64,000 nucleotides of DNA, from contig JAADGS010000026.1 of NCBI GenBank assembly GCA_013152275.1, forward strand, positions 1 to 64,000. The letters are read 5' to 3'. Numbering within the stretch: position 1 is the first letter of the stretch; the number at the start of each line of letters is the position of its first letter. The DNA comes from Actinomycetota bacterium (GTDB taxonomy: Bacteria > Actinomycetota > Acidimicrobiia > Spongiisociales > UBA4744). Below are positions 9,297 through 54,758 of the stretch, one piece after another. Both the position numbers and the translations under genes were made by a program. The notes beneath the pieces are model-generated. The model made no database searches. It had not been told where the DNA came from and was given only the letters and a program-made list of their open reading frames with translations.

Positions 9297-11231
9297 ATGA
9301 AACGCGAAATCATTTTCGCGGCAGTGCTCATGACGGCTCTGACACTGGCGGCGTGTACAACCGGGTCGACCTCCACGACTGTGGAGGCTCCGGTGACCAC
9401 ATCGACAGCGGCACCGACGCCATCCACTACCACCAGTACCACCACCACCGCTGCGCCTGCAGGGGTCACCCTACGGACCGACTGCGAGACCTGTCATACG
9501 GACGTCCACAAGACGTGGACCACGGGGTCGCATGCGGATACTCAGGGAGACGTCGCGACCGAACTTGGTGAGGAGCGTGCAGGTCAGACCCCCGACGATG
9601 TCATCCACGGTGACGATCCGGAGAACTGCATCGCATGCCACGCCCCGACCGCCGGGGCGACCATGAGTGGCGTTACAGCCCTTGACATGTTCTTCACGAC
9701 GACCGATGGTGTGTTCACTGCCGACACGACCATCAAGGATGCATCGGACTGGCCCGCCGTCGCATGCACGGCCTGCCACGAAGTGGCTGACGATCACCCC
9801 GCAGGGTCCATGCCCACGATCGCCGCATTCGACGCGACGACCGCCTCGTACACGGCCGTTGCCGGGATGAGCGAGCTATGCGGACAGTGTCATGGAACGC
9901 TCAGGTTTCCCGAAACCGACCACGTGACGTACGACGACTGGAAGGCCGGCGTGCATGCGGATACGCAGAGCGACGTCGCCGGTGAGTTGAGTGAGGAACG
10001 TGCAGGGGAGACTCCGGCGGATGTGATCGCCGGTGATGATCCGGAGAACTGCATCGCCTGTCACGGACCGTCGGCGGTTCTGACCAACGGTGGCATGACC
10101 GAACAGGATGCGTTGGCCTATTTCTTCACGACGGACAACGGCAAGTTCGGCGCAGCCACGACGAGCGCGCATTCCGAAGAGTGGCCTAGCGTCGGATGCG
10201 TATCCTGTCACAACCCGCACAACCCGCAGCAACCGGCGCTGTTGGATTCATCGACGGGGAAGTACGTCGCGATGTCGAGCAGCTCGCGGCTCTGTGGTCA
10301 GTGTCACGGGAGTCTCCGCTTCGACACAGATCATCTGACGTTCGACGCCTGGTCCTCGAGTTCGCACGCGGCGACACAAGCAGACGTGGCCGGCGAGCTG
10401 GCCGAGGAGCGTGCAGGGGAGACTCCGGCGGATGTGATCGCCGGTGATGATCCGGAGAACTGCATCGCCTGTCACGGACCTACGGCGATACTCGCCAACG
10501 GCGGGATGAGCGAGGCTGACGCACTCGCGTACTTCTTCACAACGGATGGTGGGAAGTTTGACGATGCGACAGCACCCGACCACGCGTCCGAATGGCCGAA
10601 TGTCAGCTGTTCGACCTGTCATGATCCCCATAACCCGACTCAGCGTTCGCTGTTCGACTCGTCGACCGGCGAGTACCTGGTCATGAAGGACGACTCGCAA
10701 CTGTGTGGGCAATGCCACGGGAACCTGCGGTTCCCCGACACGGACCATCTCAGCTACAACGTCTTGACCGGTACCGGCGGCATCGGCGTGCCGGACGGCC
10801 GCACGATGCCGGGAACGACCTGCACCAGCTGCCACATGTACGCGAGTGATGTGGATGGGAGCAACTCGTCGATGCAGCATGGGCACACATGGGCCATCGT
10901 CACTCCCGAGGCAAATGGTGAGATCACAGCCTCGTGTAACCAGTGTCATGCAGACTTCTCGAGCAGTGACATCGAGGCAAAGATCGCTGCGTGGCAGAAG
11001 TCCTTCAAGTCGCTCGACACGGTCGTGGCGGCGAAAGTGGCTGCCGCGAGTGACGCCATGGCCGATGTGGACAATGCCGACCTTCAGGCCAAGCTGGACG
11101 AATCAGAGAAGAACCTGGCACTCGCGGAAGGCGACGAGAGTGGCGGCTTCCACAACCACAAGTATCTGATGGCTTTGCTGAAGGATGCGGAAACAAAGGC
11201 GGAAGAGGTGCTGTCGACCCTCGGGAAGTAG
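9297..11231 (+). CDS. Dodecaheme c-type cytochrome lipoprotein
   Basis: Lipobox LAAC, Thr-rich linker and 12 CxxCH motifs. Three internal tri-heme repeats, then a helical C-terminus with DESGGFHN resembling the cytochrome c552/NrfA-type tail. No CxxCK. Confidence 0.93.
   Translation: MKREIIFAAVLMTALTLAACTTGSTSTTVEAPVTTSTAAPTPSTTTSTTTTAAPAGVTLRTDCETCHTDVHKTWTTGSHADTQGDVATELGEERAGQTPDDVIHGDDPENCIACHAPTAGATMSGVTALDMFFTTTDGVFTADTTIKDASDWPAVACTACHEVADDHPAGSMPTIAAFDATTASYTAVAGMSELCGQCHGTLRFPETDHVTYDDWKAGVHADTQSDVAGELSEERAGETPADVIAGDDPENCIACHGPSAVLTNGGMTEQDALAYFFTTDNGKFGAATTSAHSEEWPSVGCVSCHNPHNPQQPALLDSSTGKYVAMSSSSRLCGQCHGSLRFDTDHLTFDAWSSSSHAATQADVAGELAEERAGETPADVIAGDDPENCIACHGPTAILANGGMSEADALAYFFTTDGGKFDDATAPDHASEWPNVSCSTCHDPHNPTQRSLFDSSTGEYLVMKDDSQLCGQCHGNLRFPDTDHLSYNVLTGTGGIGVPDGRTMPGTTCTSCHMYASDVDGSNSSMQHGHTWAIVTPEANGEITASCNQCHADFSSSDIEAKIAAWQKSFKSLDTVVAAKVAAASDAMADVDNADLQAKLDESEKNLALAEGDESGGFHNHKYLMALLKDAETKAEEVLSTLGK
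9999..10480 (+). repeat. Identical 71-bp direct repeat inside the cytochrome gene (9999-10069 and 10410-10480)
   Basis: CGTGCAGGGGAGACTCCGGCGGATGTGATCGCCGGTGATGATCCGGAGAACTGCATCGCCTGTCACGGACC occurs twice, 411 bp apart. Confidence 0.9.
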
Positions 11232-11246
11232 CTGTTGCAGGCATGA

Positions 11247-11272
11247 TCGAGGGGCCCGATCGGGCCCCTCGA
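11247..11272. terminator. Perfect 26-bp palindrome between convergent genes
   Basis: TCGAGGGGCCCGATCGGGCCCCTCGA. No U-tract. Confidence 0.6.
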
Positions 11273-11294
11273 GGCGGCGTCGATTCGAGGGCGG

Positions 11295-11777
11295 TCAACC
11301 CTGGGAGATCAGGCCCGGGCGGATACGGCTGCGAATCTGTTCGCGTGCGTCGGCGAGGCGTTCGGCGAGCATGTGGGTGAATCGCGCCAGGAGGTGGAGC
11401 CCAACGGCCGGGTTCTCTTCGAAGGCCTCCCAGAGTTCCGCGACGGGCATGACGACGAATTCAGAGTCCTCCATACAGACCGCACTGAACGGATGCACGG
11501 CGTCGTCCGCGGTTGCCAACGCCGAAGCGCCGATCACCTGGCCCGGCCGGCTGACAACATTCATGAGGATGTCCTCGCCCCCGTGGATGGGGTGCTGTCG
11601 ATTCGCAACCATGCCGGTGACGAGCACGAGCAGGGTGTCGGAAGGTGCGCCTTCCTCGAATACCCGCTCACCGGTCTTGGCCGTGAGCAGGTTGGTGTGC
11701 GGTGCAAGCACGGCTATCGCTTCGTCGTCGAGCGAGCGGAAGAAGGGGAGGGTCTTGAGTTCGGCAGGATCGATCAT
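11295..11777 (-). CDS. Cyclic-nucleotide-binding domain protein (Crp-like, no HTH)
   Basis: LPFFRSL...VFEEGAPSDTLLVLVTG...GQVIG pattern of cNMP domains; 160 aa. Confidence 0.85.
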   Translation of the reverse strand: MIDPAELKTLPFFRSLDDEAIAVLAPHTNLLTAKTGERVFEEGAPSDTLLVLVTGMVANRQHPIHGGEDILMNVVSRPGQVIGASALATADDAVHPFSAVCMEDSEFVVMPVAELWEAFEENPAVGLHLLARFTHMLAERLADAREQIRSRIRPGLISQG

Positions 11778-11789
11778 GGTTTCTCCTCC

Positions 11790-13517
11790 TCAGAAAAGGC
11801 CTTGCACTTTGCCGGTCTCGGTGTCGATGTCGACGTTCTCGAACGCCGGTCTGGTGGGCAGCCCCGGCATGGTCCGCATCGTGCCGCACAATGGATACAA
11901 GAAGCCGGCCCCCACGCTGGCTCTGATATCGCGCACGGGAAGCCGGAAGTGCTTTGGTACGCCTTTGGCGTTGGGGTCGTGGCTCAGACTCAGATGCGTC
12001 TTGGCCATGCAGATCGGCAGGTTGTCGTAGCCGAGCTTGGTGTAGAGCTTGACCTTCTTCTCTGCCGCGTCCATGAAGTCGACACCATCGGCGCCATACA
12101 CGCGTGTGGCGATCAACTCGATCTTGTCACGGATCGGCATGTCGAGCGGGTAGAGGAATCTGAAGTCCTTGGGCTGCTTGGCTGCCTCGACTACCGCCGC
12201 GGCAAGATCTTCGGCGCCTGCACCGCCGCGAGCCCAGTGGTCGGTCATGACTGCATTCTCTGCGCCTGCCTCCACGGCGATCTTTCTCAGGATCTCGACC
12301 TCCCGCTCGGTGTCGGTGTCGAAGTGATTGATGGCCACGACCACCGGCACGCCGAAGCCGCGGGCGATCTTGATATGCGCGACCAGGTTGGCGGCGCCGG
12401 CTTCCAGTGCCGGAAGGTTCTCGGTGGTCAGTTCGGGGGGTAGAGGTCTCCCGGCAACGACCCTGCCCAGTCCGCCGTGCATCTTCAGTGCTCGGATCGT
12501 TGCCACGACCACGACCACATCGGGGGTCAGTCCACTGGCGCGCGACTTGATGTCCATGAACTTCTCCATCCCGATGTCGGAGCCGAATCCGGATTCGGTC
12601 ACGACGTAGTCGGCGAGCCGCAACGCCATCTGATCGGCCACGATGCTGGAGTTGCCGTGCGCGATGTTGGCGAACGGACCGGTGTGCACCAAGACCGGTG
12701 TGTGCTCGAGGGTCTGCATCAGCGTTGGCATCAGGGCGTCTTTCAGCAGTACCGCCATCGCTCCTGCAACCTTGAGGTCTTCTGCGGTGACCGGATGTCC
12801 ACCGGATGTGGTGCCGATCACAATGCGACCGAGTCGCTCGCGCAAGTCGGCAAGGCCGGTCGAGAGTGCAAGGATCGCCATGACCTCCGAAGCAACCGCG
12901 ATATCGAACGTCGACTCGCGGGGCGAGCCGTTGGCCTTGCCCCCGAGACCGATGACGACCTTGCGCAGCGCCCGGTCGTTGAGGTCCACGACACGGCCCC
13001 AAGAGACGGAGAAGGGGTTGAGGTCGAGCTGGTTTCCATGCGTGAGGTGGTTGTCGATCGCTGCAGCAAGCAGGTTATGGGCGATCGAGACGGCATGGAT
13101 GTCTCCGGTCAGATGCAGGTTGAAGTCCTCCATGGGGATCACCTGGCTGTAGCCGCCACCGGCGGCGCCGCCCTTGATGCCAAACGTCGGGCCCATGCTC
13201 GGCTGGCGCAGCGTCGTGAACACCGAATGGCCGAGGCGGCCCAGGCCTTGGCTGAGCCCGACGGCGGTGGTGGTCTTCCCCTCACCGAGCGGGGTAGGGG
13301 TGATGGCCGTGACGTCGATGTACTTGCCCAGCGGCAGGTCGGAGAACTTGCCCCGAACGTCGAGATGCACTTTCGCCTTGTATGTGCCGTACAGGTCGAG
13401 ATCGTCCGGGCCGAGTCCTACACCGGCGGCGATATCGAGGATCGGATCGAGAGGGGCTTCTTGAGCGATGTCGAGGTCAGACGGGACGGGGGTGCGAGGC
13501 TGGAGATAGGAACTCAA
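11790..13517 (-). CDS. fhs: Formate--tetrahydrofolate ligase
   Basis: TPTPLGEGKTT, GIKGGAAGGGY, HTGPFANIAHG, VATIRALKMHGG and TMPGLP motifs. Probable TTG start at 13517 after AGAGGAG. Confidence 0.97.
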   Translation of the reverse strand: MSSYLQPRTPVPSDLDIAQEAPLDPILDIAAGVGLGPDDLDLYGTYKAKVHLDVRGKFSDLPLGKYIDVTAITPTPLGEGKTTTAVGLSQGLGRLGHSVFTTLRQPSMGPTFGIKGGAAGGGYSQVIPMEDFNLHLTGDIHAVSIAHNLLAAAIDNHLTHGNQLDLNPFSVSWGRVVDLNDRALRKVVIGLGGKANGSPRESTFDIAVASEVMAILALSTGLADLRERLGRIVIGTTSGGHPVTAEDLKVAGAMAVLLKDALMPTLMQTLEHTPVLVHTGPFANIAHGNSSIVADQMALRLADYVVTESGFGSDIGMEKFMDIKSRASGLTPDVVVVVATIRALKMHGGLGRVVAGRPLPPELTTENLPALEAGAANLVAHIKIARGFGVPVVVAINHFDTDTEREVEILRKIAVEAGAENAVMTDHWARGGAGAEDLAAAVVEAAKQPKDFRFLYPLDMPIRDKIELIATRVYGADGVDFMDAAEKKVKLYTKLGYDNLPICMAKTHLSLSHDPNAKGVPKHFRLPVRDIRASVGAGFLYPLCGTMRTMPGLPTRPAFENVDIDTETGKVQGLF

Positions 13518-13769
13518 CGGATACTCCTCTGGAGGTCTGGTGATGAGTCTATCGAAACAGTGCTGCATCGAATCCATCGGTCGATTCGGCCCACCCTGGG
13601 ACTGGAGGTGGGCCTGGCGACGGATATCTGGGTGACGCTTGCCGATTCGCGCGAGGCTGCTACGTTCGAGCCGCTGCTCCCGCCCCGCGGTCTTGCACGG
13701 TGCCGTGTCGCGATACGAAGGACAAAGTACAAGACACGTGCCTACGCACCGGCATCACTCAACAGCGTC

Positions 13770-15407
13770 CTAATACCCCTCTTGCGGAGTGTGGCAGTCG
13801 GTGCAACGGATCTCTTTCCACTGGTTGCCGATATTCACCGGATGGCGAAACTCGAGACCGAGAAGGTTGTTCTCCAACTTCGACAGGTCGGTGGACGGGC
13901 CCTGGGCCACGATCGTGTGACATGTGTCACACGCGCCGTTGATCTTCTCGCCGGTATCGGAGACCTTGTTGGAGCCGTGGCATCGGAAGCAGCCCTCGTT
14001 GACGAAGTGGCTGAGGTTGTTCAGATGCGACCGGTAGTCGGTCTTCATCACGGGAAAGAAGTTGTTGTCATAGACACGAATCAGTGCCTCCGAGGCCGTT
14101 TCGATCTTCTCCCGGAGTTGATCGACACGCTCGGGATATGCTTGCTCGTAGTAGGAGAGCAACGTCGAACGGATCTTCTCGGCAGCCTCTTGCTGTGTGC
14201 TGTACGGACTGTTGAGAAGGTCCAGGCCGACCCGCCGGACGTAGGGCAGATCAGGAGAGATGGCCCCACGGGCGATCTCCTGGTTGATCGCCACCGCCGG
14301 CGGCAGGAAGAGGTGGCTGGGTCGGTTGTGGCAATCCATGCAATCGAACACCCTGAGTTTGGTCTTGGGGTCGTTGGGGTCGGGGTAGTCCGACACGGTG
14401 GGGTCTTTGTAGACGGTCACGGTGCCGTCGTCCCGGGTCACACGTATCCACGGGATCACCTGCCGTTTCTCGTCGGTGGCCAGATACTCGATCTTCTTGC
14501 CGATGAGCATGTGCCAGTGGATCCCTTCCTGGGAGCCGGTGCGTGTGTCGCTGCCACCGATATTCACCAGCAGACTGATCGTCCACGGCGAATTCTGCTC
14601 GTCGGTCTGGTAGTAGCGGCGTGTGACCAGTTTCCGGCCGTAGAACTGATTGGGCCAGTGGCATGTCTCGCAGGTTTGCTGGGCAGGGCGCAGGTTCTTG
14701 ACCGGCGTCGGGATCGGCCGGGGGTAGGAATTCGTCAGGGTGGCAACGACCTGGCGAATGCCATCCACCTTCGACCGCACCCAGAATGATGTTCCCGAAC
14801 CGATGTGGCATTCGACACAGGGGACTCGAGCGTGCGGCGAGTGTTCATAGGTGACGGCCTCGGGTTTCATCACCTTGTGACATGTCTGTCCGCAGAACTC
14901 GACCGAGTCTGTCGCCTCGTAGCCTTTGAAGCCGCTCCAGCCGACCACCAGCAGCACAAGGGCCCCGACACCGAGGAAGACCCAGAGGCTGCGCATATAC
15001 CGCGGGTTCGAAGGCTCGACACGGAGCGTGAACTGCACCTTTTCGCCGCGACGCCTCGCGTTCATCACCTGGCGCCGCACCGCAAGCAGGAAGATGATGG
15101 CGCCGAGGAGAACTACGGACGGCATCGCGACATAGGTCACGAGAGAGCGGTACGAATTCTGGCTGGCTGACGTCATGTCGATGGCTACGAGCACCAGGAA
15201 CATCAAGCCGCCTGCGACCATGATGGCGCCACCCACTCCCGCCAGTGGATGCCGGTACAGGCTTCGTGTCTCGATGGTCGGCTCGGTCTCGCTCGGAGGG
15301 TTGGCAGAGACAGGGCTCGAGCCGGCAGGTGGTTGCCCAGGTGGAGTGACGGAGGACTCGTCGGGTGTGCTGGCGTTGGGCTTGTCTGGGGGGTTCACTT
15401 CAGACAC
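13770..15407 (-). CDS. ImcH-like NapC/NirT-family inner-membrane heptaheme cytochrome c
   Basis: Three N-terminal TM helices, NapC/NirT-like FCGQTCH (CX3CH) and 6 CxxCH. Motifs KVDG.RQ, LRPA..TCETCHWP, GIHWH and DCMDCHNRPSH. GTG start after AGGGAGG. Confidence 0.85.
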   Translation of the reverse strand: MSEVNPPDKPNASTPDESSVTPPGQPPAGSSPVSANPPSETEPTIETRSLYRHPLAGVGGAIMVAGGLMFLVLVAIDMTSASQNSYRSLVTYVAMPSVVLLGAIIFLLAVRRQVMNARRRGEKVQFTLRVEPSNPRYMRSLWVFLGVGALVLLVVGWSGFKGYEATDSVEFCGQTCHKVMKPEAVTYEHSPHARVPCVECHIGSGTSFWVRSKVDGIRQVVATLTNSYPRPIPTPVKNLRPAQQTCETCHWPNQFYGRKLVTRRYYQTDEQNSPWTISLLVNIGGSDTRTGSQEGIHWHMLIGKKIEYLATDEKRQVIPWIRVTRDDGTVTVYKDPTVSDYPDPNDPKTKLRVFDCMDCHNRPSHLFLPPAVAINQEIARGAISPDLPYVRRVGLDLLNSPYSTQQEAAEKIRSTLLSYYEQAYPERVDQLREKIETASEALIRVYDNNFFPVMKTDYRSHLNNLSHFVNEGCFRCHGSNKVSDTGEKINGACDTCHTIVAQGPSTDLSKLENNLLGLEFRHPVNIGNQWKEIRCTDCHTPQEGY

Positions 15408-15514
15408 CGAGTTCCTCCCTGAAGTTGCATTGAGTGCCGGAGTGCCGGGATGGATGTGGTCGTCGATCCTGAATCATGGAGCCCTTCGGTCCGAAAAGCA
15501 ACCCGGCACGAACG

Positions 15515-16417
15515 TCAGGGCACCGTGCTACTCGGGGCGGTTTGTCCGGACTCCGCAGGTGGAGTGTACGGCACATAGATCTGGACAGGGCTGGCGGGAG
15601 GCGGAATCGTCTTGATCGCCACCTGTTCGTAGGTGAGGAACACAACGACAACGATGGCAAACGCAACGGTGAATGCGCCATAGGCGGTGAAGAACGCCTT
15701 TCGTCTCTTTCGCAGAACCTCAGGAGGCACGGGCGGTACCGGAGGAGCACCGGCCTTGATCTCGGCCAGCTGGGCCGGATGCTCCTCGAGCATCTCTTCT
15801 TCGGTCAGATATCCGTCGAACATGCTTCGGTTCAGGTGCCGTAGGTGGACGTGATAGGTGTGCCACACGAGGATTGCCAGAACCGCGAGGATGGCTTCAC
15901 CCCCGTGCACCGCTTTTGCGGCCGGAATGAACTCGCCGGGGAGGAGTCTGGTCGTGGAGATGGGGTTCCACATCATCAGGCCGGTGACCACCATGAGGAT
16001 CGTTCCCCAGATGATTGACCAGTACTCCATCTTTTCGTCGAATGTGAACTTGCCTTGGCGGGGAGGATCGGAGCGAAGACCGAGGCGGAAGGCCACGGTC
16101 TGCACTGCTGCACGAGCATCGTCGAGCCCTGGAAGCATCTCCCGCCCCATCCGAAGCACGAAGAATCGATACCCGGCCGTGCCGATGTGATACACGGTGG
16201 CGACGAGGACCATCGCGGCGAGCGAATGATGGATCAGTCGCGTGGTGTTGATCCCCCCGAGCGCACCAATGATCGCCTTCGAAAGCCATCCTTCCGCCCA
16301 CTTTTGCACAAGGCCGGTGATGGCGAGACCGGTGAAGACGAAGACCTGCACCCAGTGTTCGACACGGTCGGAGACCGAGAATCGAAGATAGCGGGGTTGG
16401 GATGTGACCTCAGGCAT
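15515..16417 (-). CDS. FdnI/HydC-type di-heme cytochrome b subunit
   Basis: RFSVSDRVEHW, LAITGL, IHH, GKFTFDEKMEYW, VHGGEAILA and WHTYHVH. Start overlaps the upstream stop (ATGCCTGA). Confidence 0.9.
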   Translation of the reverse strand: MPEVTSQPRYLRFSVSDRVEHWVQVFVFTGLAITGLVQKWAEGWLSKAIIGALGGINTTRLIHHSLAAMVLVATVYHIGTAGYRFFVLRMGREMLPGLDDARAAVQTVAFRLGLRSDPPRQGKFTFDEKMEYWSIIWGTILMVVTGLMMWNPISTTRLLPGEFIPAAKAVHGGEAILAVLAILVWHTYHVHLRHLNRSMFDGYLTEEEMLEEHPAQLAEIKAGAPPVPPVPPEVLRKRRKAFFTAYGAFTVAFAIVVVVFLTYEQVAIKTIPPPASPVQIYVPYTPPAESGQTAPSSTVP

Positions 16418-17546
16418 CTCGCACCTCACGTCGGGTTCTTCGCTTCTCCCTGTAACGGCCGAGCGCATCGATGATTACGTACAGCAGCATCCCTCCGATC
16501 ACGGTCGGGATCAGAATCCGGTAGAAGAGTCTCGCGTAGTAGACGATCGGCCACTCGTGGGGAGTCGCCGTATAGTGGCTCATCCACGCCGTCGGGAAGT
16601 TGGTGTCGGCATCGGGATGGCAACGCCGACAGGTGGTGAGCAGGTTCGCCTTGAACACGGTGCTCTCGGGGTCGCTTGGCGGCATGATGTCATGCACACC
16701 GTGGCAGGAGACACAAACCGGCTTGTTGGTCTCCTGGCCCGGCGCCAGGTCCTCGAAGAGGGTCACCGTCTTGCCGTGGAAGTCTGCGACATAGGTGCTG
16801 AACACGTCCGTGCGGATCCCGTACTTGTCCATCATCTCCTTGTTCGCGTGGCACTTCTTGCAGATGAGTGGGGAGAACAGCCGGAACGGAGAGTTGATGG
16901 GTCCTTCGATTTCGTGGATACCGTGGCAATCGGTGCACGTGGGGACATCGGGATTGCCATCGGTCAGTGCACTCCCGTGGACACTTTCTTCATAACGGTC
17001 ATAGATTTCCGCATGGCACTTCCGGCACGTCTTGGGGATGTCCACTCGGGCTATGGGCGGGTTGGTCACGTAGTGAGGGTCGTGGCAGTCGGAGCAGACT
17101 GCGGCCTGTTCGATCCCTTCCTCTCGCGCCTTGGCGTGGACGCTGTCCGTGGTCTTGGTTGCCTGCTCGAGGTGGCAGACGGTGCATGATTCAGATTCCC
17201 GGATCGCATACTGACGAAGGTCTTGGGCGGTTGGAGGATCGTGGGGAATGGATGTGATGCTCGTGTGGCACAGAATGCATTTCATGTTCCAATACGCATG
17301 GATCGAAGCCTGCCAGCGAGTCTTGTCGATGGTGGCGTCGAGATGTTCTCCAGAGGGCAGTTCGGTGGAGAGCCCAGAGTTGCCGTGGCAGCCGAGGCAC
17401 GTGGCGTTGTCCCATTGCGAGGTGTCATTGGTGAGGCCGACTTCGGGCGGGTTCTGTTCGGCACTCACGGACGTCGGACGGCCGACAGCGAACACGAACA
17501 GGATGGCGACGAAGCATGTCAGCCAGAGAATCCTTCGATATCCCAT
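16410..17546 (-). CDS. Nonaheme cytochrome c with signal peptide and C-terminal TM anchor (CbcL periplasmic-domain-like)
   Basis: 9 CxxCH with recurring 'SIH/SVH/DFH' distal His segments and a C-terminal hydrophobic helix. ATG 17546 after GGAGGG. Confidence 0.9.
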   Translation of the reverse strand: MGYRRILWLTCFVAILFVFAVGRPTSVSAEQNPPEVGLTNDTSQWDNATCLGCHGNSGLSTELPSGEHLDATIDKTRWQASIHAYWNMKCILCHTSITSIPHDPPTAQDLRQYAIRESESCTVCHLEQATKTTDSVHAKAREEGIEQAAVCSDCHDPHYVTNPPIARVDIPKTCRKCHAEIYDRYEESVHGSALTDGNPDVPTCTDCHGIHEIEGPINSPFRLFSPLICKKCHANKEMMDKYGIRTDVFSTYVADFHGKTVTLFEDLAPGQETNKPVCVSCHGVHDIMPPSDPESTVFKANLLTTCRRCHPDADTNFPTAWMSHYTATPHEWPIVYYARLFYRILIPTVIGGMLLYVIIDALGRYREKRRTRREVRDA

Positions 17547-17646
17547 CGTCCCTCCGTGCCGGTTCAACTCGCCCATCCGCGTCGATCCACTCGTCCACCC
17601 CTCCGCACCAACCCGTATCATGGTCCCATTCGAGTCGCGCATTCAA

Positions 17647-17682
17647 GGGCCGAAGGGCCCTGAACGTCGGGACGTTCGGCCG
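17647..17682. promoter_or_regulatory. Tandem DevR/DosR-like boxes
   Basis: GGGCC-GAAG-GGCCC (17647-17660) and GGGAC-GTTC-GGCCG (17669-17682), 22 bp apart. Confidence 0.55.
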
Positions 17683-18401
17683 GTCCAAGGACACATGTGA
17701 GGGCGAGGAGCCCTCTGCACCTCGTCCCGGTGGCCGTTGATCGGAAGGGCTGATGGCAGGCTACTCCGTATTGTGCGCGCGGCGCAGCACCCTGGGTATC
17801 GCGATCGGGTGAGCCGGCGACACGGGGCCGGACCGTTTCCTATGAGGAGTTCGGTTGCGCCGACGCCATTCTGCATCTGGAGGGCGAGACCGTTCTTCCT
17901 TCGCAGTCTCCCACGATGGTCTTGTCACGATCGGCGCCGAAGCCTGCGTTCGGGCTTGCTTCACCCGGACACCGCACGCAACCCATCTGGGGATGGTGAA
18001 GTCGTGCACGGGCGCGACGACACATCCTTGTGATTACACCGGGGACAGGACACCAGGTTGGCCCTGTCGCATGGGATGAACCGCCTGGCCGCCGGGAGGT
18101 TCGGTGCGGTCGAGTCGGTCAGGACCATCAGGGTTTGTCGGATCCGCGGTTGTGCCGAAGACCACCTTTCCATCGGTTCGTGCAGGGTCTCCGGTGGGTG
18201 TCCTGCGGCGAGACGAAGGCATGCGCGTGCACCGGGTCTACAATCGCCGACGTGTACGCCTGGCATCGGGTTTCCTGGGGGGATCTCTCCTCGCTGCGAC
18301 CGGGACTAGTCCCGGGTGTCGCGAGCAAAGGGCTTTTGGCCCTGGCGGACGCGGCCGCAGTCCGGATAGGCTTTGTCCCGTGAAGGGAATGGAGCCGAAA
18401 C

Positions 18402-19553
18402 GTGGCCGCTGATCGCTTCGACGCTCGCCATTGGAAGCAGCGACTGCCGGTGCCTTCGGTCCGCGCAATCGTGTCGACGGGTGGGTTCGTGTTACTCGCC
18501 CTGGTGCTTTTCGCTACGACGGCGTGGGCGCTCGATGGCCCGACGCCACCACAGCCGAGTGATCCTGTCGGTACACACGTGGCACCACACGGTGGCTACT
18601 CGGCAAGCAGCAACATGTGTCTCCAATGTCACGACGTGCACGATGCGAGCGGGGATTATGCGTTGCTGTGGAAGAACAGCGTTACCTTCATGTGCGCGAC
18701 GTGTCACGGTCTGCATGGGCTCCGCGGAACGCTCGGGCTCCCGAGCGACTGCACCGAGTGCCATGACATGCACAGCGGGGGAAGCTTCTTTCCAACGCCT
18801 CGAGACCCGATCGGACCGGGAACCCTCGGCACGGTTTCGAGTCGGAGCGCCTACAACACATCCACACCGGCATCGACACACGGCATCGGGGCCTTGGCAC
18901 CTCCCGGTGAGACCGGCATCGTGATGACCCGGTCCGACTGGCAGTACTCGTGGGGTGCGAGTGGCCCGCCGCCGGCGGACGCGACGAACCCGTCGGGCTC
19001 CGGGACGGCATCCGACATCGGTGGCGGGCTCTACTGTGGAAGCTGTCACACTCCGCACGGGGACTTCGGACAGGTCGTGAACAAGTGGACGGCAGCCGAC
19101 GAGGGAAGGTCGATATGGTGGACCAACCCGACGACAGGCGACCAGGAACAGAAACTCTTGCACTATGACACCGGAACCGGCGCGTGGCAGGTGTGCGATA
19201 CCGGCGTCACGAATTGTCAGTTCGCCCAAGTGCGAGATGCCGAGGACCAATTGGTGTACCTGTACGCGTACAAGCTGCTGTCGGCATATCCCAATCATGC
19301 GTACTCGACGCTTCAGAGCTACGGTACCGAACAGAATGACGACGACGGGGCTCGGTGGTGCGGCACCTGTCACAGCTCCCGAGTCGACGGCGCCGGCTAC
19401 CACAATCATCCGACAGGGTGCAGTGCGTGTCACGGCAATCCGACAGGTGGAGCATCAACGGACTTCCCGCACACATCGTCCACGGAGTCGCTCCTCATCG
19501 CCTACCCGGACGCGCTCTGTGTCACCTGTCACACGTCGGGCAGCCTGCCATAG
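18402..19553 (+). CDS. Secreted heptaheme cytochrome c, OmcS-like motif order
   Basis: Signal peptide ending AWA. PHGGY..CLQCHDVH, CATCH, CTECH, LYCGSCHTPHG, AYKLL, WCGTCH..HNHP, CSACH and terminal LCVTCH. No membrane anchor. Start uncertain. Confidence 0.9.
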   Translation: MAADRFDARHWKQRLPVPSVRAIVSTGGFVLLALVLFATTAWALDGPTPPQPSDPVGTHVAPHGGYSASSNMCLQCHDVHDASGDYALLWKNSVTFMCATCHGLHGLRGTLGLPSDCTECHDMHSGGSFFPTPRDPIGPGTLGTVSSRSAYNTSTPASTHGIGALAPPGETGIVMTRSDWQYSWGASGPPPADATNPSGSGTASDIGGGLYCGSCHTPHGDFGQVVNKWTAADEGRSIWWTNPTTGDQEQKLLHYDTGTGAWQVCDTGVTNCQFAQVRDAEDQLVYLYAYKLLSAYPNHAYSTLQSYGTEQNDDDGARWCGTCHSSRVDGAGYHNHPTGCSACHGNPTGGASTDFPHTSSTESLLIAYPDALCVTCHTSGSLP

Positions 19554-19693
19554 AGGTGTGTGGTGCAACGAGGCACGCGCCCCGCAGTTTGGACCTTCGG
19601 CGAGACGACGCCGGTTGAACGGTAATCGTCGTCAGGGTCCGTCGGTTTTGCTCAGCTACCATGTAACTCTCCGGCCGAACGGCCAATCGGTTC

Positions 19694-19707
19694 GGGTCCT
19701 TTGGCCC
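19694..19707. promoter_or_regulatory. DevR/DosR-like box upstream of the decaheme cytochrome
   Basis: GGGTC-CTTT-GGCCC. Confidence 0.5.
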
Positions 19708-19969
19708 CATGGAGGGGGGCTGAGCGCAGATACTGTGGACTGTGACCCGACGGGGACGAGAAGAACTCCTGATCGAGACAGGGAGGCGGCGAAGTTGATG
19801 ACACGAGAAGTTGGGCATGCTCTCCGCTGCGTCCTCGAGGTCGAGCGACCTCGATCGCTGTCTACCGCCTCGGCCGGCTCGATGCGGGATCCCGGTCGCT
19901 TCCACGCCAACACCGAATCGAGGGGGAGGCGAGATGTGATCGACCTTCCTCGCGGCGGCTGAGAGTTCC

Positions 19970-20803
19970 ATGGCGCGCCATCGAAACCTGCGTAGGGTCC
20001 TGTCCGTTGTCGTGGTGATCGGAGCGATCGCCGTCGCCGGTGTACTCGTCGTCTCGCGGTCCCGCAACGGGAATACGCCGGTGACTTCGACGACCGTCGT
20101 CGACAACAGTGCATTTGCAGGGTGCACCGAGTGCCACGCCGACTTCGACGCCGCTCTCCTTTCCGGTCAGGTGCCGACGCTGACCTTCACGCACGCGCAG
20201 CACAAGGCGGCTGCCGGCGCCGTGGAGTGCGGTTCCTGTCATCCTTCCGAGACCCACGTTGGTCGCATAACCTTCAAACCGACGATGGAGGCCTGTTTCA
20301 GCTGTCATGGTGCGGCTGCCGCCTTCCCGATTCCCTGCGCCGCGTGTCATCCTCTCTCCGTGGTGCCCAAGCCTCCGAGCCACAAGGCGACAGATTGGGG
20401 CACGACGCACGGCATCGGTGTATTGGATGTCGAGTCCTCCTGTACCACCTGTCACTCACAAACGACGTTCTGTGATGCTTGTCACGGGGTCGAGATGCCT
20501 CACCCGAAAGGCTGGGACGGAAAACCACACGCCCTGGCGTTCTTCGACGCGGGTTCCGACGTGTGCGCGAAATGCCATTCGTTCGGAATCGACGTGAAGA
20601 GTCGCGACAAGTGTGACACGTGTCACCACTCTGGAGGACCCCAGGATCAACCCTGGGTGAAGGCACACCAAGATGTGGTTGGAGCCGAGGGCGGCGGTTC
20701 GTGCTTTGCTTGCCATGAGCCGGCGACGTGCGTGCAGTGTCATCTTCACGGTATCGAGAACCTCGATGCCGATCGGGCACGCCTTCTCGAGACTGGCGGG
20801 TGA
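19970..20803 (+). CDS. Membrane-anchored decaheme cytochrome c
   Basis: N-terminal TM helix; 10 CxxCH in 277 aa; c7/c3-like FTHAQH; PSH..W..HG repeats. Confidence 0.92.
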   Translation: MARHRNLRRVLSVVVVIGAIAVAGVLVVSRSRNGNTPVTSTTVVDNSAFAGCTECHADFDAALLSGQVPTLTFTHAQHKAAAGAVECGSCHPSETHVGRITFKPTMEACFSCHGAAAAFPIPCAACHPLSVVPKPPSHKATDWGTTHGIGVLDVESSCTTCHSQTTFCDACHGVEMPHPKGWDGKPHALAFFDAGSDVCAKCHSFGIDVKSRDKCDTCHHSGGPQDQPWVKAHQDVVGAEGGGSCFACHEPATCVQCHLHGIENLDADRARLLETGG

Positions 20804-20827
20804 CATGGTCCGGAAGCACCGCGTCGG

Positions 20828-21284
20828 ATGGTTGCATTCCTGAGGCAGCAGGCGATCATTCTTACGAGTTTGCGGCCGCGCTCCAGACCGTCAAGCATCA
20901 GGCGTGTCTTCCATCACGCGATCGACCCCGAGACCGACCTCCCACAGGCCTCGGCTCCTGGAGATGTCTCCTGTCTCGGATGCTGCCCCGGGCCCGGAGC
21001 CGTTGGCGCACGATCTCGTCGGTCCTTCTCGTCACAGAGTTCGTTCAACGGGTCACTCGTTTTCCCGCGGCCGACAGAACTCTTGGAACGCGTCCATGTC
21101 GAGGTGCCATGCCCTCAGGCGTCCGCCGGGACCGGCCTGCCATCCATGGGCGGGAGGCATCGGGCCGAGAGGATTTGGTGTATGCATGAGCTGTCATACT
21201 GACGCCTGCCACGCGAGGCGCCACTCCAACCACGCATCCAACCCATCCGAGAAGAAACCGCTGCGTACCGGAGGTCAACGATGA
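20828..21284 (+). pseudogene. Degenerate multiheme cytochrome remnant
   Basis: One intact CMSCH (21183-21197) plus broken motifs (SRCH, ACH twice, CLGCC in another frame). The ORF ends in an ATGA overlap with the next gene. Confidence 0.45.
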
Positions 21285-21940
21285 CAAAGCGTCTAGTGGC
21301 GGTCGCTGCTTTGCTTCTCATTGTGGTGGCGGGTCTGGCGGCTGCCATCTGGTATCGAACCGGGGTGCGTGACCCCGTCATCGTCAAGGTCGACGGCGTA
21401 CCCATCCACGAGTCCCAGGCCGAGGCCAGGATCGCCGGGATTGCGGCGGTGCACAAGGACATCGCCTCGACTCTCGGACCCGATTGGCGCTCGTTGGTAC
21501 TCCAGTCACTCGTCGACGACGTTCTCATGCAGCAGGAAGCACGTCGAGCCGGCATCGAGGTGATCGATCAGGACGTCGACGCGTCACTCGACTCCCTGCG
21601 CAGCAAGTTTCCTTCCGAAGCCGACTGGAGGCGTTTCCTGGAGGAACAAGGCATCGATCAAACCGAACTCGAGAGGAGGATCCGACTCCAGCTCGTCGGT
21701 TCCAGGGTCTATGAGGAAGTGACGGCTGCGGTTGCTCCCACCGAGGACGAATTGCGCGCCTACTACCGGGCTCACGAGTCCGATTTCACCGTGGATGGCA
21801 AGGTGCAGCCCTTTCTCGAGGTCCGCAACTCGATCGAGGACAAGGTGACGAAGCAGATGCGGGACGAGGCGTTCGGTACCTGGCTGCAGCAGCGCCGGAG
21901 CGAGGCGGACATCGTGGTTGTGAGCGATGAGTGGCGGTAG
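21281..21940 (+). CDS. SurA N-terminal / PrsA-type membrane-anchored foldase chaperone
   Basis: TM anchor, KVDGVPI, LQSLVDDVLMQQEA..GIEV, EDELRAYY and WLQQRRSEADI. No recognisable parvulin catalytic insert. Confidence 0.85.
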   Translation: MTKRLVAVAALLLIVVAGLAAAIWYRTGVRDPVIVKVDGVPIHESQAEARIAGIAAVHKDIASTLGPDWRSLVLQSLVDDVLMQQEARRAGIEVIDQDVDASLDSLRSKFPSEADWRRFLEEQGIDQTELERRIRLQLVGSRVYEEVTAAVAPTEDELRAYYRAHESDFTVDGKVQPFLEVRNSIEDKVTKQMRDEAFGTWLQQRRSEADIVVVSDEWR

Positions 21941-22144
21941 CAGTCCGAGCATCGGGCTTTCCAGAGGCCTCCTCGTCGGCACCCTCGAAAGGTTACGACT
22001 CGTCCGGAGCGGCGCGGAAGGAGTCGAACCGTTCTACGGAGTGGCAGCAGCCGGTGCGCTTGTTCTCTTCGAAGCCAACTTCGGTTTCGCTCGGACGCCG
22101 CACGGGCTCGGACCTTCGGTCGCGGCCCCGTGAAGGACCACGGC

Positions 22145-23293
22145 ATGGAATCGCCACAAGAACCGTCGCTCGAGCGGGAAAGGCGGCCTTTGGGGCAGGC
22201 CACGATTCACCGCCTGCTCTATGTCCTCATCGGTCTTCTCGGCGTAGCGGCGGTCATCCTGCTCGTCATGCTCATCTGGCTGCTACGTCCCCAGCCCACC
22301 TCGATGCCGGTTGCCGTGGCGGGATGTCCCATGGAGATCACCCGATCGATCTACGGATACGGAACGAAACCGGCCGAGTTGCTGGTTCAACCTCTCGCGG
22401 TCACCTTCGACGGGACAGGCAATGTGTGGATCTCCGATACGGGGAACGCCCGAGTGGTCGAGTTTGGTCCCAACGGGAAGCTGGTTCGCTCCGTGGGTGA
22501 TGACGGCGGTCAGGGACGTCTCCACAGTCCCTACGGCCTGGCGTTCGGCAGCGACTTCGAGCGTCTCTACGTGGCGGATTGGACGCGACGAGAAGTGGTG
22601 GTCTTCTCGGCCGACGGACACTACGTGAAGAGCCTGCCCGCAGGCGACCAGGACCTTGCCGTGTTCGGTCCCGACGGGTTCTCTCCCTACGATGTCGCCG
22701 TTCGCGGAGCCCAGATCGTGGTTGCCTCCAACGATGGCCTGTATTTCTTCGACAGGTCCGGGCACGTCGTCGATCGGTGGGGAGGTGACACGCGAGGATC
22801 GGACGTGGGTAGTTTCGCCTTCCCCGATGCCCTCGCCATCGACCCGACAACCGGCAACGTGTACGTTGCCGACACCCTCAACCGGCGCGTGGTTGCCCTC
22901 GACGGGGACGGCAACGTGCTCTGGGTCTCGGGAAAGCGTGACGAGGAGGGCAAGATCGTCGGCTTCTGGCAGCTTCCAAGATCGGTTGTGGTCGGCCCGG
23001 ATGGTCTCGTCTACGTCACCGACACGTTTCGAGCCCAGGATCACTGCGCCGGCACAGGACACATCGTGGTGTTGAAGCCGACGGGAGAGCTGGTCTCCGA
23101 GTTCGGTGCCGCCGGGCAATCGGAGGACACGCTCAGTTTCCCGGAGAAGATGGCGATCGGCCCGGAAGGTACGTTCGCCCTCGCCGACCGCGAGAACAAC
23201 CGGGTGGTGCTCTTCACCGTCGGTCCGCTGCCACCGGCCGATCCTGGTGAAGCGAGCCTCTACGAGAAGTCGTTCGTGCGTTTCGGACCGTGA
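22145..23293 (+). CDS. Membrane-anchored NHL-repeat beta-propeller protein
   Basis: Repeated P..LA.D..GNVYVADT.NRRV units; one N-terminal TM helix. Confidence 0.9.
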   Translation: MESPQEPSLERERRPLGQATIHRLLYVLIGLLGVAAVILLVMLIWLLRPQPTSMPVAVAGCPMEITRSIYGYGTKPAELLVQPLAVTFDGTGNVWISDTGNARVVEFGPNGKLVRSVGDDGGQGRLHSPYGLAFGSDFERLYVADWTRREVVVFSADGHYVKSLPAGDQDLAVFGPDGFSPYDVAVRGAQIVVASNDGLYFFDRSGHVVDRWGGDTRGSDVGSFAFPDALAIDPTTGNVYVADTLNRRVVALDGDGNVLWVSGKRDEEGKIVGFWQLPRSVVVGPDGLVYVTDTFRAQDHCAGTGHIVVLKPTGELVSEFGAAGQSEDTLSFPEKMAIGPEGTFALADRENNRVVLFTVGPLPPADPGEASLYEKSFVRFGP

Positions 23294-23378
23294 CCGACCA
23301 CCGGCGACGGTGACGAGGTCTCCGAACGTCGTACCTAAACTTGTCGGGCCGGGAGTACTTTCGAGGAGGCCGATCGCA

Positions 23379-24080
23379 ATGGCGCGATCCGTGGAACGCA
23401 TGATCGGGTACGGGAAGCTCCTGGCCGATCTCGCCGAGAGCGGATGTCCGGTCTGTCGAGGGTCGGTTGGTGCCGCGGCGAGGTACTTGGAGAGCCTGCT
23501 CTGGGAGAACGTGAACGATGCCGAGGTCCGGGAAGGACTCCGGCGCGACCACGGATTCTGTCGGGAACACTCTTTGGCCCTCCTGCAGGTGGCGGCGGCG
23601 CGAAGTGAGGCGCTCGGTGTGGCCATCCTCTACGAAGATTTGCTGGATCACATCGAGCAGGAGATCGTCACCGTGGGAGCGAGTTCGCGACGCAGACCTT
23701 CCCGCTCTTGGTTGAATATGAGATCCGGCCCGTCATGTCGGGCTTGTACGGTCGCCGACGATGTGGCCGTCAACTACCTCCGCATCATCGCGACTTCCGA
23801 ACCGGATACCGATCTGGATCGACATCTCGGAGGAGCTGCCCTGTGCTTTCCTCATTTTTCGAGAGGGCTGGAGATTCGGGGGCTCGATCATGAGCGGCTC
23901 GAGGCGGTGTATCTACGAGGGTCGGTTTCGATTCGAGCCGAGCTCCGGCGTCTCATCGATCACGCAGACTATCGACGGGCCGACGAACCCCTGGGGAACG
24001 AGAAGGACGCCTGGGCACGCGCCGTCCACCTCGTCGTCGGTTCTCCCGTGTACGGTGCCGTCGCGGAGTCGGGATCATGA
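23379..24080 (+). CDS. DUF6062-like Cys/His-rich protein
   Basis: GCPVC, ENVND..R..L....GFCREH, CRAC, LCFPHF and DYR...EP...EKDAW.RA. ATG after GAGGAGG. Confidence 0.75.
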   Translation: MARSVERMIGYGKLLADLAESGCPVCRGSVGAAARYLESLLWENVNDAEVREGLRRDHGFCREHSLALLQVAAARSEALGVAILYEDLLDHIEQEIVTVGASSRRRPSRSWLNMRSGPSCRACTVADDVAVNYLRIIATSEPDTDLDRHLGGAALCFPHFSRGLEIRGLDHERLEAVYLRGSVSIRAELRRLIDHADYRRADEPLGNEKDAWARAVHLVVGSPVYGAVAESGS

Positions 24081-25435
24081 GCAACTCGGAGTCGGGGCAA
24101 GGAGCAGCCCGGCCGACCGACGAATGTCCCGTCTGCAGCGAAGTGTCCCTGGCCCGCCAGAGACATTGGTTCTGGGTGTTCGCCGAGAAACTCGGGGATG
24201 GGGCGTTCCTGACCCGACTGGGAACGGGAGGCGGCTACTGCGTCAGGCACGCTCGTGAGCTGCTTCTTCACGAGCAGGGGGAACGCACGGCCCGGGGGTT
24301 CCAGTTCGTGTTGCGAGGATGGCGTGCCGGCCTCGGAGCTTCGATGCGTCTCGACTGCCCTGCATGCCGCATCGAGGCCGAGACGGAGGCGTATGTCCTG
24401 CGCCTGCTGAGTCGCGGATTGTGGAGCGGAGATCAGCAGACACGTCTGGACCCGGACGCCCTGTCATGTCTGCCACATGCCCGGATGCTCCTCGAGCAGG
24501 CGCAGGAAGGGATTCTGCCCGAGGCTCTGAAGCGGTTGGGTGCAACGGTCGATCGAGTGCGAGCAGGTGACGGTGGATCGCAGGCCGAGATCCACACCGC
24601 GATCGGTCACGGGTACGACGAGACGTTTCGGAGGCCTGAACGTTGCGATACCGATGCCACGGCCGTGCTCTCGTTCGACGCTGCCGATCGTGCACTTGCC
24701 CAGGGATGGTGCCCTCTCTGTCTGGCAGGCCGTGAGGCGTCGGAGAACGTCATCGGATGGCTCGGGCATCCGGATCGAACCGACCGGGACCAGGATGATT
24801 TTGCCCGGCTGTGCCCCGCCCACCTGTGGGATGCCGCGGCGAACGATCCGGAAGCTTCGGCCCGGACGATGCAGCGGATCCGTCGCACCTGGATCAGGAG
24901 CCTCGGGGGACTCGAGGCGCTTGTCGAAGGGGCCGCGCAATCCGATCGGAAGGGACGATCGGGCAACGGGTCGCGCAGCAGGTTTCGCGGATGGTTGGAA
25001 CGCGCGTTCCCGAAACGCAGTCGCGAAGTCCAGTTCCGCAGGATCCTCGTGGAGGAGGAGTGCGTGGCGTGCGTCGCAGCCGTGACCGCGGTCGACCGTG
25101 GCATCGCACTCCTCGATGCCTACCTTCTCGACACGGATCGAAGCGATTGGTACCTACGCTCGAGCGGCGTGTGCCTGCAGCATGCCTACGCCGCGATCCC
25201 ACACCTCGGTGAGCAGCCTGCGCTCATTGTGACCGACCGGGCAAAGACCCTCATCGCGCGCACGATGTGGGGCCTCGACGAGGCGATCCGCAAGGTGAGC
25301 TGGTCGGTGCGGTATGAGCCATCCGGGGAAGAGACCGAGACGTGGCGTGAAGCGGTCGTGCTCACCGTCGGACGAGGCGTGTTGTGCTCAGACTGGCTCG
25401 CGCCCGTTCTGCAGCGTCCCGAGCGAGCCGTATAG
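24077..25435 (+). CDS. Tandem DUF6062-like protein
   Basis: Four CxxC and four CxxH motifs, with the same C-terminal 'EP.G.E...W..AV....G' signature as the upstream gene. ATGA overlap. Confidence 0.65.
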   Translation: MSNSESGQGAARPTDECPVCSEVSLARQRHWFWVFAEKLGDGAFLTRLGTGGGYCVRHARELLLHEQGERTARGFQFVLRGWRAGLGASMRLDCPACRIEAETEAYVLRLLSRGLWSGDQQTRLDPDALSCLPHARMLLEQAQEGILPEALKRLGATVDRVRAGDGGSQAEIHTAIGHGYDETFRRPERCDTDATAVLSFDAADRALAQGWCPLCLAGREASENVIGWLGHPDRTDRDQDDFARLCPAHLWDAAANDPEASARTMQRIRRTWIRSLGGLEALVEGAAQSDRKGRSGNGSRSRFRGWLERAFPKRSREVQFRRILVEEECVACVAAVTAVDRGIALLDAYLLDTDRSDWYLRSSGVCLQHAYAAIPHLGEQPALIVTDRAKTLIARTMWGLDEAIRKVSWSVRYEPSGEETETWREAVVLTVGRGVLCSDWLAPVLQRPERAV

Positions 25436-26841: not shown

Positions 26842-26844
26842 GGT

Positions 26845-51856: not shown

Positions 51857-51912
51857 CGCCTCGACGGACAACGTTCGTGGCACTCTGCCCGGCACGGGGG
51901 GCTGCCAAGACG

Positions 51913-52079: not shown

Positions 52080-52115
52080 AAGCGGTTGTGTCCCTCGACT
52101 CGGGATGACAAGAAA

Positions 52116-54754: not shown

Positions 54755-54758
54755 TCGA

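Follow-up and report, generated by a model that had tools for sequence, protein, structure and literature searches.

Which route could electrons take from the quinone pool to the outside of a cell that has no outer membrane? The question is raised by a cluster of multihaem cytochrome genes at positions 9297–25435 of contig JAADGS010000026.1 (assembly GCA_013152275.1), from an Actinomycetota bacterium of the class Acidimicrobiia; the window, i.e., the whole stretch analysed, comprises the first 64,000 nucleotides of this contig, forward strand. Molecular detail on electron export by Gram-positive bacteria comes mainly from Thermincola and Carboxydothermus, and surveys of Actinomycetota have found few or no recognisable genes for extracellular electron transfer (EET). 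On balance, we favour reading five multihaem cytochromes and a cytochrome b of this locus as a Thermincola-type chain from menaquinol to the exterior, in a bacterium without outer-membrane genes. The locus is real and probably serves electron export. The direct evidence consists of the genes, their haem motifs and topology signals, resemblances to known families, synteny, and the absence of outer-membrane genes.

Organization of the cytochrome locus

The cytochrome genes and the two helper genes encoded with them are as follows (lengths in amino acids, aa).

9297..11231, plus strand: mhc12, 12-haem lipoprotein assigned to the OcwA family (644 aa, 12 CXXCH)
13770..15407, minus strand: ImcH-type inner-membrane cytochrome (545 aa, 6 CXXCH and 1 CX3CH, C172GQTCH)
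15515..16468, minus strand: FdnI/HydC-type cytochrome b (PF01292, E 9.8e-16), membrane half of a putative split CbcL-type module
16410..17642, minus strand: nonahaem cytochrome (410 aa, 9 CXXCH), haem half of the same putative module
18402..19553, plus strand: mhc7, secreted cytochrome of a hexahaem family (383 aa, 7 CXXCH)
19970..20803, plus strand: mhc10, compact anchored decahaem (277 aa, 10 CXXCH)
21281..21940, plus strand: SurA/PrsA-like chaperone, membrane-anchored (PF13624, E 7.4e-13)
22130..23293, plus strand: NHL-repeat beta-propeller, membrane-anchored (PF01436, E 1.3e-17)

A motif count on the open reading frames (ORFs) of the window gave a total of 45 haem motifs over the five multihaem ORFs. 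The original prediction, a model's reading of the DNA letters, had counted five multihaem proteins with 12+7+9+7+10 motifs, one of them CX3CH, and a cytochrome b; these counts are exact. Among the remaining ORFs of at least 100 aa in the window, single motifs occur only in four spurious-looking frames, and the multihaem clustering is therefore far above chance. The divergent arrangement described there was likewise seen, with the nonahaem protein, cytochrome b and the seven-motif ImcH-type protein in a minus-strand unit, and the 7-haem protein, the 10-haem protein and onward in a plus-strand unit. Its tiered locations also fit the sequence, which encodes a lipobox with a stalk, a three-helix NapC/NirT-like protein, an anchored decahaem and a signal peptide. 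In NCBIfam, no family scored above its cut-off for any cytochrome of the locus, and no catalytic reductase gene was found in the locus or the 64-kb window.

Two candidate quinol oxidases

The 545-aa protein is, by its feature layout, of the ImcH type. Three transmembrane (TM) helices lie at its N-terminus (hydropathy segments 53–82, 86–117 and 136–163), and its motifs start at 172 (the CX3CH, directly after the third helix), 197, 246, 356, 473, 493 and 535. In GSU3259, the ImcH of G. sulfurreducens, the helices are placed at 13–35, 45–67 and 100–122 and the motifs at 132, 156, 205, 311, 428, 448 and 486 (PMC6295460, Table S3). The two proteins are collinear by motif and helix positions, the motif spacings being 25/49/110/117/20/42 here versus 24/49/106/117/20/38 in GSU3259, a difference of at most 4 residues. 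The ImcH family is described as defined by three TM helices, one CX3CH, six CX2CH and a NapC/NirT-like region (PMC6295460). In the present protein, residues 142–228 match NapC/NirT (PF03264, 39.4 bits; cut-off 24.1), residues 144–250 match the NrfH model TIGR03153 below its cut-off, and the NrfH chain 2j7a_C is matched at E 8.8e-5. The family is very large and well conserved, with 7747 of 8000 scored candidates recovered as relatives at E ≤ 0.001, at 55–68% identity and under several phylum labels; the label Geobacter is absent among the best 120 of these 7747. The window protein and a paralogue on contig C26 of the same genome are alike 57–59% identical to the copies in genomes G009, G013 and G024.

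The nonahaem protein, encoded upstream on the same strand, carries a signal peptide, nine CXXCH motifs at 82–338 and one C-terminal TM helix (371–396) some 30 residues past the last motif. Its likely start is M33 (position 17546), and the database form has 378 aa. MtrA (6r2q_A) is matched at E 1.1e-5. The cytochrome b gene overlaps the stop of the nonahaem gene; its product has five TM helices (36–58, 77–105, 147–171, 180–210 and 256–290) and matches TIGR01583 below cut-off. In CbcL (GSU0274), nine motifs at 34–257 are followed by six TM helices (PMC6295460, supplementary tables), and the protein is described as carrying a HydC/FdnI-like dihaem b domain (PMC6295460). The single helix of the nonahaem protein and the five of the cytochrome b likewise add up to six. 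Where the CbcL/MtrH/MtoC family has a single polypeptide, the locus has two overlapping genes, and we take the pair as a CbcL plan cut between the first and second TM helices, i.e., a putative split CbcL-type module and not CbcL itself. All of the best 120 relatives of the nonahaem protein are unfused (316–435 aa), which indicates that the split form is common.

A candidate for crossing the cell wall

The product of mhc7 has a signal peptide ending in AWA and belongs to a family for which 140 relatives were found, none of them named. Six haem motifs are kept in 87–88 of 88 aligned sequences, as are six non-motif histidines, while the seventh motif (C117) is genus-specific and present in only two of the 88; the family is therefore hexahaem. 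His63 of mhc7 lies in an invariant PHGGY motif. A template-free model built from the 88 sequences (predicted local distance difference test, pLDDT, 75.3; predicted template modelling score, pTM, 0.80) was compared with 48,161 PDB representatives by VIA-align. Four chains reached Z ≥ 2, all of them multihaem cytochromes: OmcS (6ef8_A; Z 5.4, root-mean-square deviation 5.7 over 185 residues, 20% identity), MtrA (Z 3.5), OmcE (Z 2.9) and OcwA (Z 2.2). An earlier AF2 model from 40 sequences, with the signal peptide kept (pLDDT 60.2), again placed OmcS first (Z 3.7). At the sequence level, the mhc7 profile weakly matched MtrA (2.7e-4) and OmcE (9yuq, 0.016; 7tfs, 0.026) in the PDB, and phmmer of mhc7 against the PDB returned nothing meaningful.

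OmcS is described as a six-haem protein of little secondary structure in which histidines provide all haem ligands, one of them supplied by the adjacent subunit (PMC6584659). For Thermincola CwcA, a hexahaem protein, a model with OmcS as template (18% identity) is reported, and stacking of the protein through peptidoglycan has been proposed (PMC7911101). The likeness of mhc7 to OmcS is weak, and the modelling is suggestive of an OmcS/CwcA-like candidate for crossing the wall.

One segment of mhc7 stands apart from the haem-binding parts: an insert at residues 237–286 (window ~19110–19260) is beta-rich, modelled at pLDDT > 90, and has a conserved Cys pair (C265/C272). Foldseek with both models gave only weak Tudor/SH3-like matches, to this inserted beta domain.

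The neighbouring mhc10 has one N-terminal anchor (TM 5–33) and c7/c3-type domains. Its nearest Atlas clusters are c7/c3 cytochromes in which Actinomycetota is the commonest phylum.

Anchors are also predicted for the two helper proteins, at residues 1–30 of the chaperone, which has a partial peptidyl-prolyl isomerase (PPIase) domain (Rotamase_2 profile positions 1–54 of 121), and at 21–59 of the NHL propeller. The chaperone gene adjoins mhc7 homologues in loci L003 and L012 and in genome G024, and the NHL gene does so in L003, L005, L012, L020 and G024. Similar company is described for multihaem cytochromes elsewhere: the Uet cluster encodes them with PPIase and NHL-repeat proteins (PMC10734462), cytochrome clusters of D. 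ferrophilus with PPIase and NHL genes (PMC5815863), the osc operon around omcS has PPIase-like and beta-propeller neighbours (PMC13194489, citing Shen et al. 2025), and omcE clusters combine a multihaem cytochrome with a PPIase and an NHL or beta-propeller cassette (bioRxiv 10.1101/2025.10.22.684050). The beta-barrel of those diderm clusters is missing from the present locus.

A predicted surface lipoprotein with twelve haem motifs

The mhc12 protein begins with a lipobox (LAAC, residues 17–20), after which ~35 residues, mostly Thr, Ser, Pro and Ala, form a predicted stalk. Its haem motifs are arranged as 1 + 3x3 + 2 and are followed by a C-terminal helical bundle; the three triheme repeats are ~137 aa each, and the second and third are identical at 94 of 135 positions. 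OcwA (PDB 6i5b_A), described as a terminal reductase at the surface of Thermincola potens cells (PMC6703420), is matched at E 9.4e-15. The match aligns query 435–636 with chain 306–496 and, in addition, 62–87 with 21–46, and so covers the last four haem motifs, the C-terminal helices and the first motif. The C-terminal part also matches Pfam Cytochrom_C552 (E 3.9e-21), NrfA chains are matched weakly, and mhc12 contains no CXXCK motif.

An exhaustive search of 1.84 billion representatives yielded 130 relatives at E ≤ 0.001, 26 of them at E ≤ 1e-30, and an OcwA-length protein of 526 aa was recovered among them. In 20 of the 130 relatives, motifs were counted as nine in seven proteins, twelve in one and fifteen in three; as these 9-, 12- and 15-haem forms show, the OcwA-like family grows by whole triheme modules. 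A lipobox was found in only some of the relatives examined (P0361–P0418). Compared with the nine haems of OcwA, mhc12 has twelve via one extra triheme repeat, and is assigned to the family as an enlarged, predicted lipid-anchored member. Its surface location is predicted from the lipobox and stalk, the genome encoding both lipoprotein diacylglyceryl transferase (Lgt) and LspA.

Envelope and cytochrome maturation

The original prediction had reported no beta-barrel gene, as would fit a monoderm envelope, and the genome supports both points. No beta-barrel gene is present in the locus. The assembly (3.07 Mb, 100 contigs, 100% complete) contains no Omp85, whereas the same search was positive in seven diderm control genomes, and no MtrB/PioB was found in it either. 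Six WhiB genes, seen among the 14 control genomes only in Corynebacterium, further support a monoderm host, and the relatives of the cytochromes are nearly all labelled Actinomycetota.

Genes for cytochrome maturation form one operon of the window.

52116..58070 (wider span 51023..58070), minus strand: Lgt-headed operon for System I maturation of cytochromes c (ccm), 27 kb from the locus

Besides Lgt at its head, the operon encodes an ABC ATPase, CcmC, CcmE, CcmF and a thioredoxin-like protein. A second CcmF lies on contig C28 and LspA elsewhere on the window's contig. The System II protein ResB was not found in the genome; the Corynebacterium control has it. System I Ccm, Lgt and LspA are the machinery that the products of the locus need.

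Conservation, paralogues and deletion variants

Distribution was assessed in 40 relatives of the same order (19 of the same family for the ImcH count), and synteny around the hexahaem gene in 18 related loci from named metagenome-assembled genomes. The whole locus is present, in the same order, in the congener G001. ImcH occurs in 24 of the 40 relatives and in 18 of the 19 within the family, and mhc7 in three (G001, G002 and G024). G024 belongs to another family of the order and carries, in a cluster of ~15 kb, ImcH, cytochrome b, the nonahaem protein, NHL, the chaperone, decahaems, an 11-haem protein and the hexahaem protein.

Two groups of genes recur. ImcH adjoins the cytochrome b/nonahaem pair in the window, on contig C26 and in G001, G009, G013 and G024. 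The set of mhc7, decahaem, chaperone and NHL is found in the window, on contig C9, and in G001, G024, L003 and L012. Near the hexahaem gene of the 18 loci, NHL was detected four times, the chaperone twice and the decahaem twice; a cytochrome b plus multihaem pair was detected in eight, six of these at only 24–31% identity. None of those neighbours was present in 8 of the 18 loci, several of them short. The comparison across related genomes that the original prediction had proposed shows co-conservation within each module, and both modules are found side by side more than once. Co-conservation does not extend to the whole set, which is restricted to this genus; the same holds, nearly without exception, for mhc12.

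The genome itself holds further copies, with 20 ORFs of at least three CXXCH motifs on five contigs. The ImcH/cytochrome b/nonahaem set has a paralogous counterpart on C26 (61, 52 and 52% identity), and the hexahaem/decahaem/chaperone/NHL set has one on C9 (45–51, 45, 42 and 61%). In the C9 paralogue of mhc7 (16602–17712), two frames with three motifs each are separated by a frame change near 17240–17330, for which an assembly error is not excluded; the counterpart of this gene in G001 is a single open frame of 366 aa. With the C9 copy frame-broken, the window mhc7 is the sole uninterrupted copy in the assembly.

A second congener, G002, keeps mhc12, ImcH, mhc7, the chaperone, NHL and the DUF6062 gene pair that follows NHL in the window. 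In its locus (L028, G002:C22), a nonahaem remnant at ~11283–11384 of the locus coordinates marks a deletion of the CbcL-type pair.

Intervening and flanking genes

Several genes of the span had gone unnamed in the original prediction: besides the chaperone and the NHL propeller, these are the following.

11295..11777, minus strand: cyclic nucleotide (cNMP)-binding protein (PF00027), unrelated intervening gene
11790..13577, minus strand: formate-tetrahydrofolate ligase (FTHFS; PF01268, E 2.3e-257), unrelated intervening gene
~23379-24080 and 24077-25435, plus strand: two DUF6062 genes (PF19538), Cys-rich, cytoplasmic

The cNMP–FTHFS pair recurs in G009 without adjoining cytochromes. In G009 and G013, ImcH stands beside the cytochrome b/nonahaem pair 10–17 kb from FTHFS, without the hexahaem module.

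The DUF6062 proteins have repeated CPxC/CxxH-type Cys motifs and no export signal. Their genes were found in 3 of the 40 order relatives and are absent from G024, the 14 control genomes and all 18 related loci. The pair was considered as part of the system and rejected on its presence in 3 of 40 relatives and its absence from the 18 related loci, and we regard the two genes as neighbours only.

Recent horizontal transfer of the locus was also considered and is not supported, the GC content being 0.627 versus 0.638 for the genome and the tetranucleotide distance lying at the 18th–74th percentile. The original prediction had named the locus an EET or anaerobic-respiration island. Every tier does resemble a named EET family; "island" is too strong a word, because housekeeping genes interrupt the locus and its composition is not foreign.

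The gap between the divergent units (window 17547–18470), about 860 bp, is unusually long and non-coding, and between congeners it is poorly conserved except at its two ends. No ORF with coding-like GC content at third codon positions (GC3) was found in the intergenic gaps of the locus, this one included. An Rfam scan of 8500–26500 at E ≤ 0.1 gave no match, and no excess of promoter-like or terminator-like sites over shuffled sequences was seen.

The locus is flanked at 26137–28436, on the minus strand, by genes that are syntenic in the congener G002. They encode an extracytoplasmic function (ECF) sigma factor, an anti-sigma factor of the zf-HC2 type and a protein of 234 aa without a Pfam match, and could be regulators of the cytochrome locus. 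A region at 32752–45932 contains long ORFs with coding-like GC3 (373, 430, 414, 328 and 534 aa) and no Pfam match at E ≤ 1e-4. Further on, but before the ccm operon is reached, lie a WhiB gene (47314–47505) and a Fur-family regulator gene (48820–49251).

Proposed electron path and alternative explanations

In the Thermincola-type chain that we favour, the ImcH-type protein would oxidize menaquinol from the quinone pool, and the split CbcL-type module, a nonahaem subunit with the first TM helix joined by a five-helix dihaem-b subunit, would act as a second quinol:cytochrome oxidoreductase. Both would reduce the membrane-anchored decahaem, which in turn would pass electrons to the secreted, OmcS/CwcA-like mhc7. 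The anchored SurA/PrsA-like chaperone and the NHL propeller may fold or position mhc7, which may stack across the peptidoglycan, and the OcwA-family 12-haem lipoprotein on its Thr-rich stalk would serve as a tethered terminal reductase or hub. From the genes we infer haem loading, protein contacts, polymerization, the acceptor and the way in which electrons flow.

A more ambitious version would see in this one 16-kb locus of an uncultured actinobacterium a complete monoderm nanowire pathway with two Geobacter-type oxidases, an anchored decahaem, a secreted OmcS-like wire polymerizing through the peptidoglycan and an OcwA-type cap. We consider it possible but rather doubtful. In this version the chaperone, as a dedicated one, and the NHL protein would aid polymerization, and the cap would be the lipoprotein whose haem count grows by triheme modules. 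If this version were true, the sister species without the CbcL-type pair and the decahaem would show which parts are dispensable.

Several observations weigh against the favoured chain. The Z score of 5.4 for OmcS is below the level of 7–8 typical of chance for the tool, Foldseek with both mhc7 models gave no match at E ≤ 0.001, and the 40-sequence mhc7 profile did not reach OmcS in the PDB at E ≤ 1. The likeness to GSU3259, GSU0274 and CwcA is drawn from published feature layouts. Full-length mhc12 was found in only three of the 40 relatives (G001, G002 and G006), two unrelated genes separate it from the rest of the locus, and the G024 cluster has no mhc12. The congener G002 is without the cytochrome b, the nonahaem protein (apart from a 34-residue remnant) and the decahaem, from which it follows that the chain is not obligately complete. 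The plus-strand intergenic gaps of 417 and 478 bp may leave co-transcription open, and the wall's outer face may be out of reach for a stalk of ~35 residues. Finally, OcwA is reported to reduce nitrite and hydroxylamine as well (PMC6703420).

The last two points also bear on another explanation, in which soluble or colloidal substrates such as nitrite, hydroxylamine, sulfur species, humics or flavins are reduced at the membrane or wall, with the NrfA-related lipoprotein of the OcwA family as the enzyme. The short stalk would hold mhc12 near the membrane, its C-terminal part matches Cytochrom_C552 and, weakly, NrfA chains, and OcwA is additionally described as binding flavin mononucleotide (PMC6703420). 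However, mhc12 is without the CXXCK motif, the nitrite turnover reported for OcwA is far below that of NrfA (PMC6703420), the OmcS-like/chaperone/NHL module has no obvious role in such a reaction, and the homologous clusters in G024 and on C9 have no mhc12 homologue; we consider this explanation quite improbable. The direction of flow may also be questioned, since it is left unfixed by sequence: the donor might be Fe(II), a cathode or a partner cell, with electrons running inwards to the quinone pool. CbcL/MtoC/MtrH homologues are reported from Fe(III) reducers and Fe(II) oxidizers alike (PMC6295460), and the Uet cluster, in which the PPIase–NHL pairing is also found, comes from cathode- and iron-oxidizing bacteria (PMC10734462). 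Zhong and Shi, however, report ImcH homologues in Fe(III) reducers only (PMC6295460), OcwA and CwcA are described from a Fe(III)- and anode-reducing bacterium (PMC6703420, PMC7911101), and neither Cyc2 nor another dedicated oxidase was seen in the window; in our judgement, inward flow is distinctly unlikely.

It is also conceivable that the 12-haem lipoprotein, the ImcH/CbcL oxidases and the hexahaem/decahaem/chaperone/NHL set are three independent units, merely neighbours and maybe serving different pathways. FTHFS and the cNMP-binding gene do part mhc12 from the remaining locus, and the genes are unequally spread over the 40 relatives, with ImcH in 24 and mhc7 and mhc12 in three each. The oxidase and hexahaem modules have their paralogues on different contigs (C26 and C9), the ImcH/CbcL module occurs without the hexahaem module in G009 and G013, and G002 lost the CbcL-type pair and the decahaem while keeping ImcH, mhc7, the chaperone, NHL and mhc12. 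Against this, the modules are adjacent again in G001, in G024 of another family and, partly, in L005 and L012. It would make little sense for a quinol oxidase to lack a downstream chain of acceptors, or for a secreted cytochrome to lack its donor, and all products face the same extracytoplasmic compartment. We regard the independence of the units as unlikely and retain the Thermincola-type chain as the preferred reading.

For each tier of a chain across the wall, the locus supplies a concrete candidate. If it is active, bacteria of this kind would contribute to the cycling of iron, of humic substances or of electrons between species in the sediments and subsurface habitats that they occupy.

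Comparison with known systems

The survey of Zhong and Shi lists one ImcH and no CbcL homologue in Actinobacteria (PMC6295460), and in a lake survey the search was suspected of being biased against Gram-positives. In the literature on multihaem cytochromes or ImcH/CbcL of Acidimicrobiia and Actinobacteria that we covered, no such locus is described.

Among diderm systems, Geobacter ImcH (GSU3259), compared by motif positions, shares with the present protein three TM helices, the CX3CH, six CXXCH and a near-identical spacing. Geobacter CbcL (GSU0274) agrees in its nine motifs, its total of six TM helices and its b domain of the FdnI/HydC type, a plan that here is split over two overlapping genes; the present host differs from that of both oxidases in being monoderm. 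OmcS (6EF8) with its osc neighbourhood, and OmcE, are described as having six haems with all-His ligation, little regular secondary structure, and PPIase-like and beta-propeller neighbours, features shared with the mhc7 family and its surroundings. In contrast to OmcS, mhc7 bears a seventh motif as well as a beta-rich insert and is encoded without a beta-barrel or secretion gene. Compared by gene content, the Uet cluster of 'Ca. Tenderia' and Gallionella is described from diderms and includes the porin UetC (PMC10734462), and the clusters of D. ferrophilus are likewise diderm, with outer-membrane cytochromes (PMC5815863).

The closest likeness is to the chain of Thermincola potens and T. ferriacetica, formed by ImdcA, PdcA, CwcA and OcwA (PMC6703420, PMC7911101). 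The same four tiers are described there, also without an outer membrane: a membrane multihaem quinol oxidase, a decahaem, an OmcS-like hexahaem protein and an OcwA-type surface cytochrome. Thermincola belongs to Bacillota and uses the ImdcA oxidase, whereas the present host is an actinomycetote with oxidases of the Geobacter ImcH and CbcL types. Unlike Thermincola OcwA, the OcwA relative found here has 12 haem motifs and is predicted to be lipid-anchored, with a stalk rich in Thr. The locus also encodes a chaperone and an NHL propeller, and all tiers lie within 16 kb.

Overall, each component can be placed in a family already described, and a pathway of this type has been described in Bacillota; the result is incremental rather than surprising. 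New in comparison with these systems are the host phylum, a single locus in which oxidases of the Geobacter type are combined with wall and surface cytochromes of the Thermincola type, the enlarged and predicted lipid-anchored OcwA relative, and the natural deletion variants.

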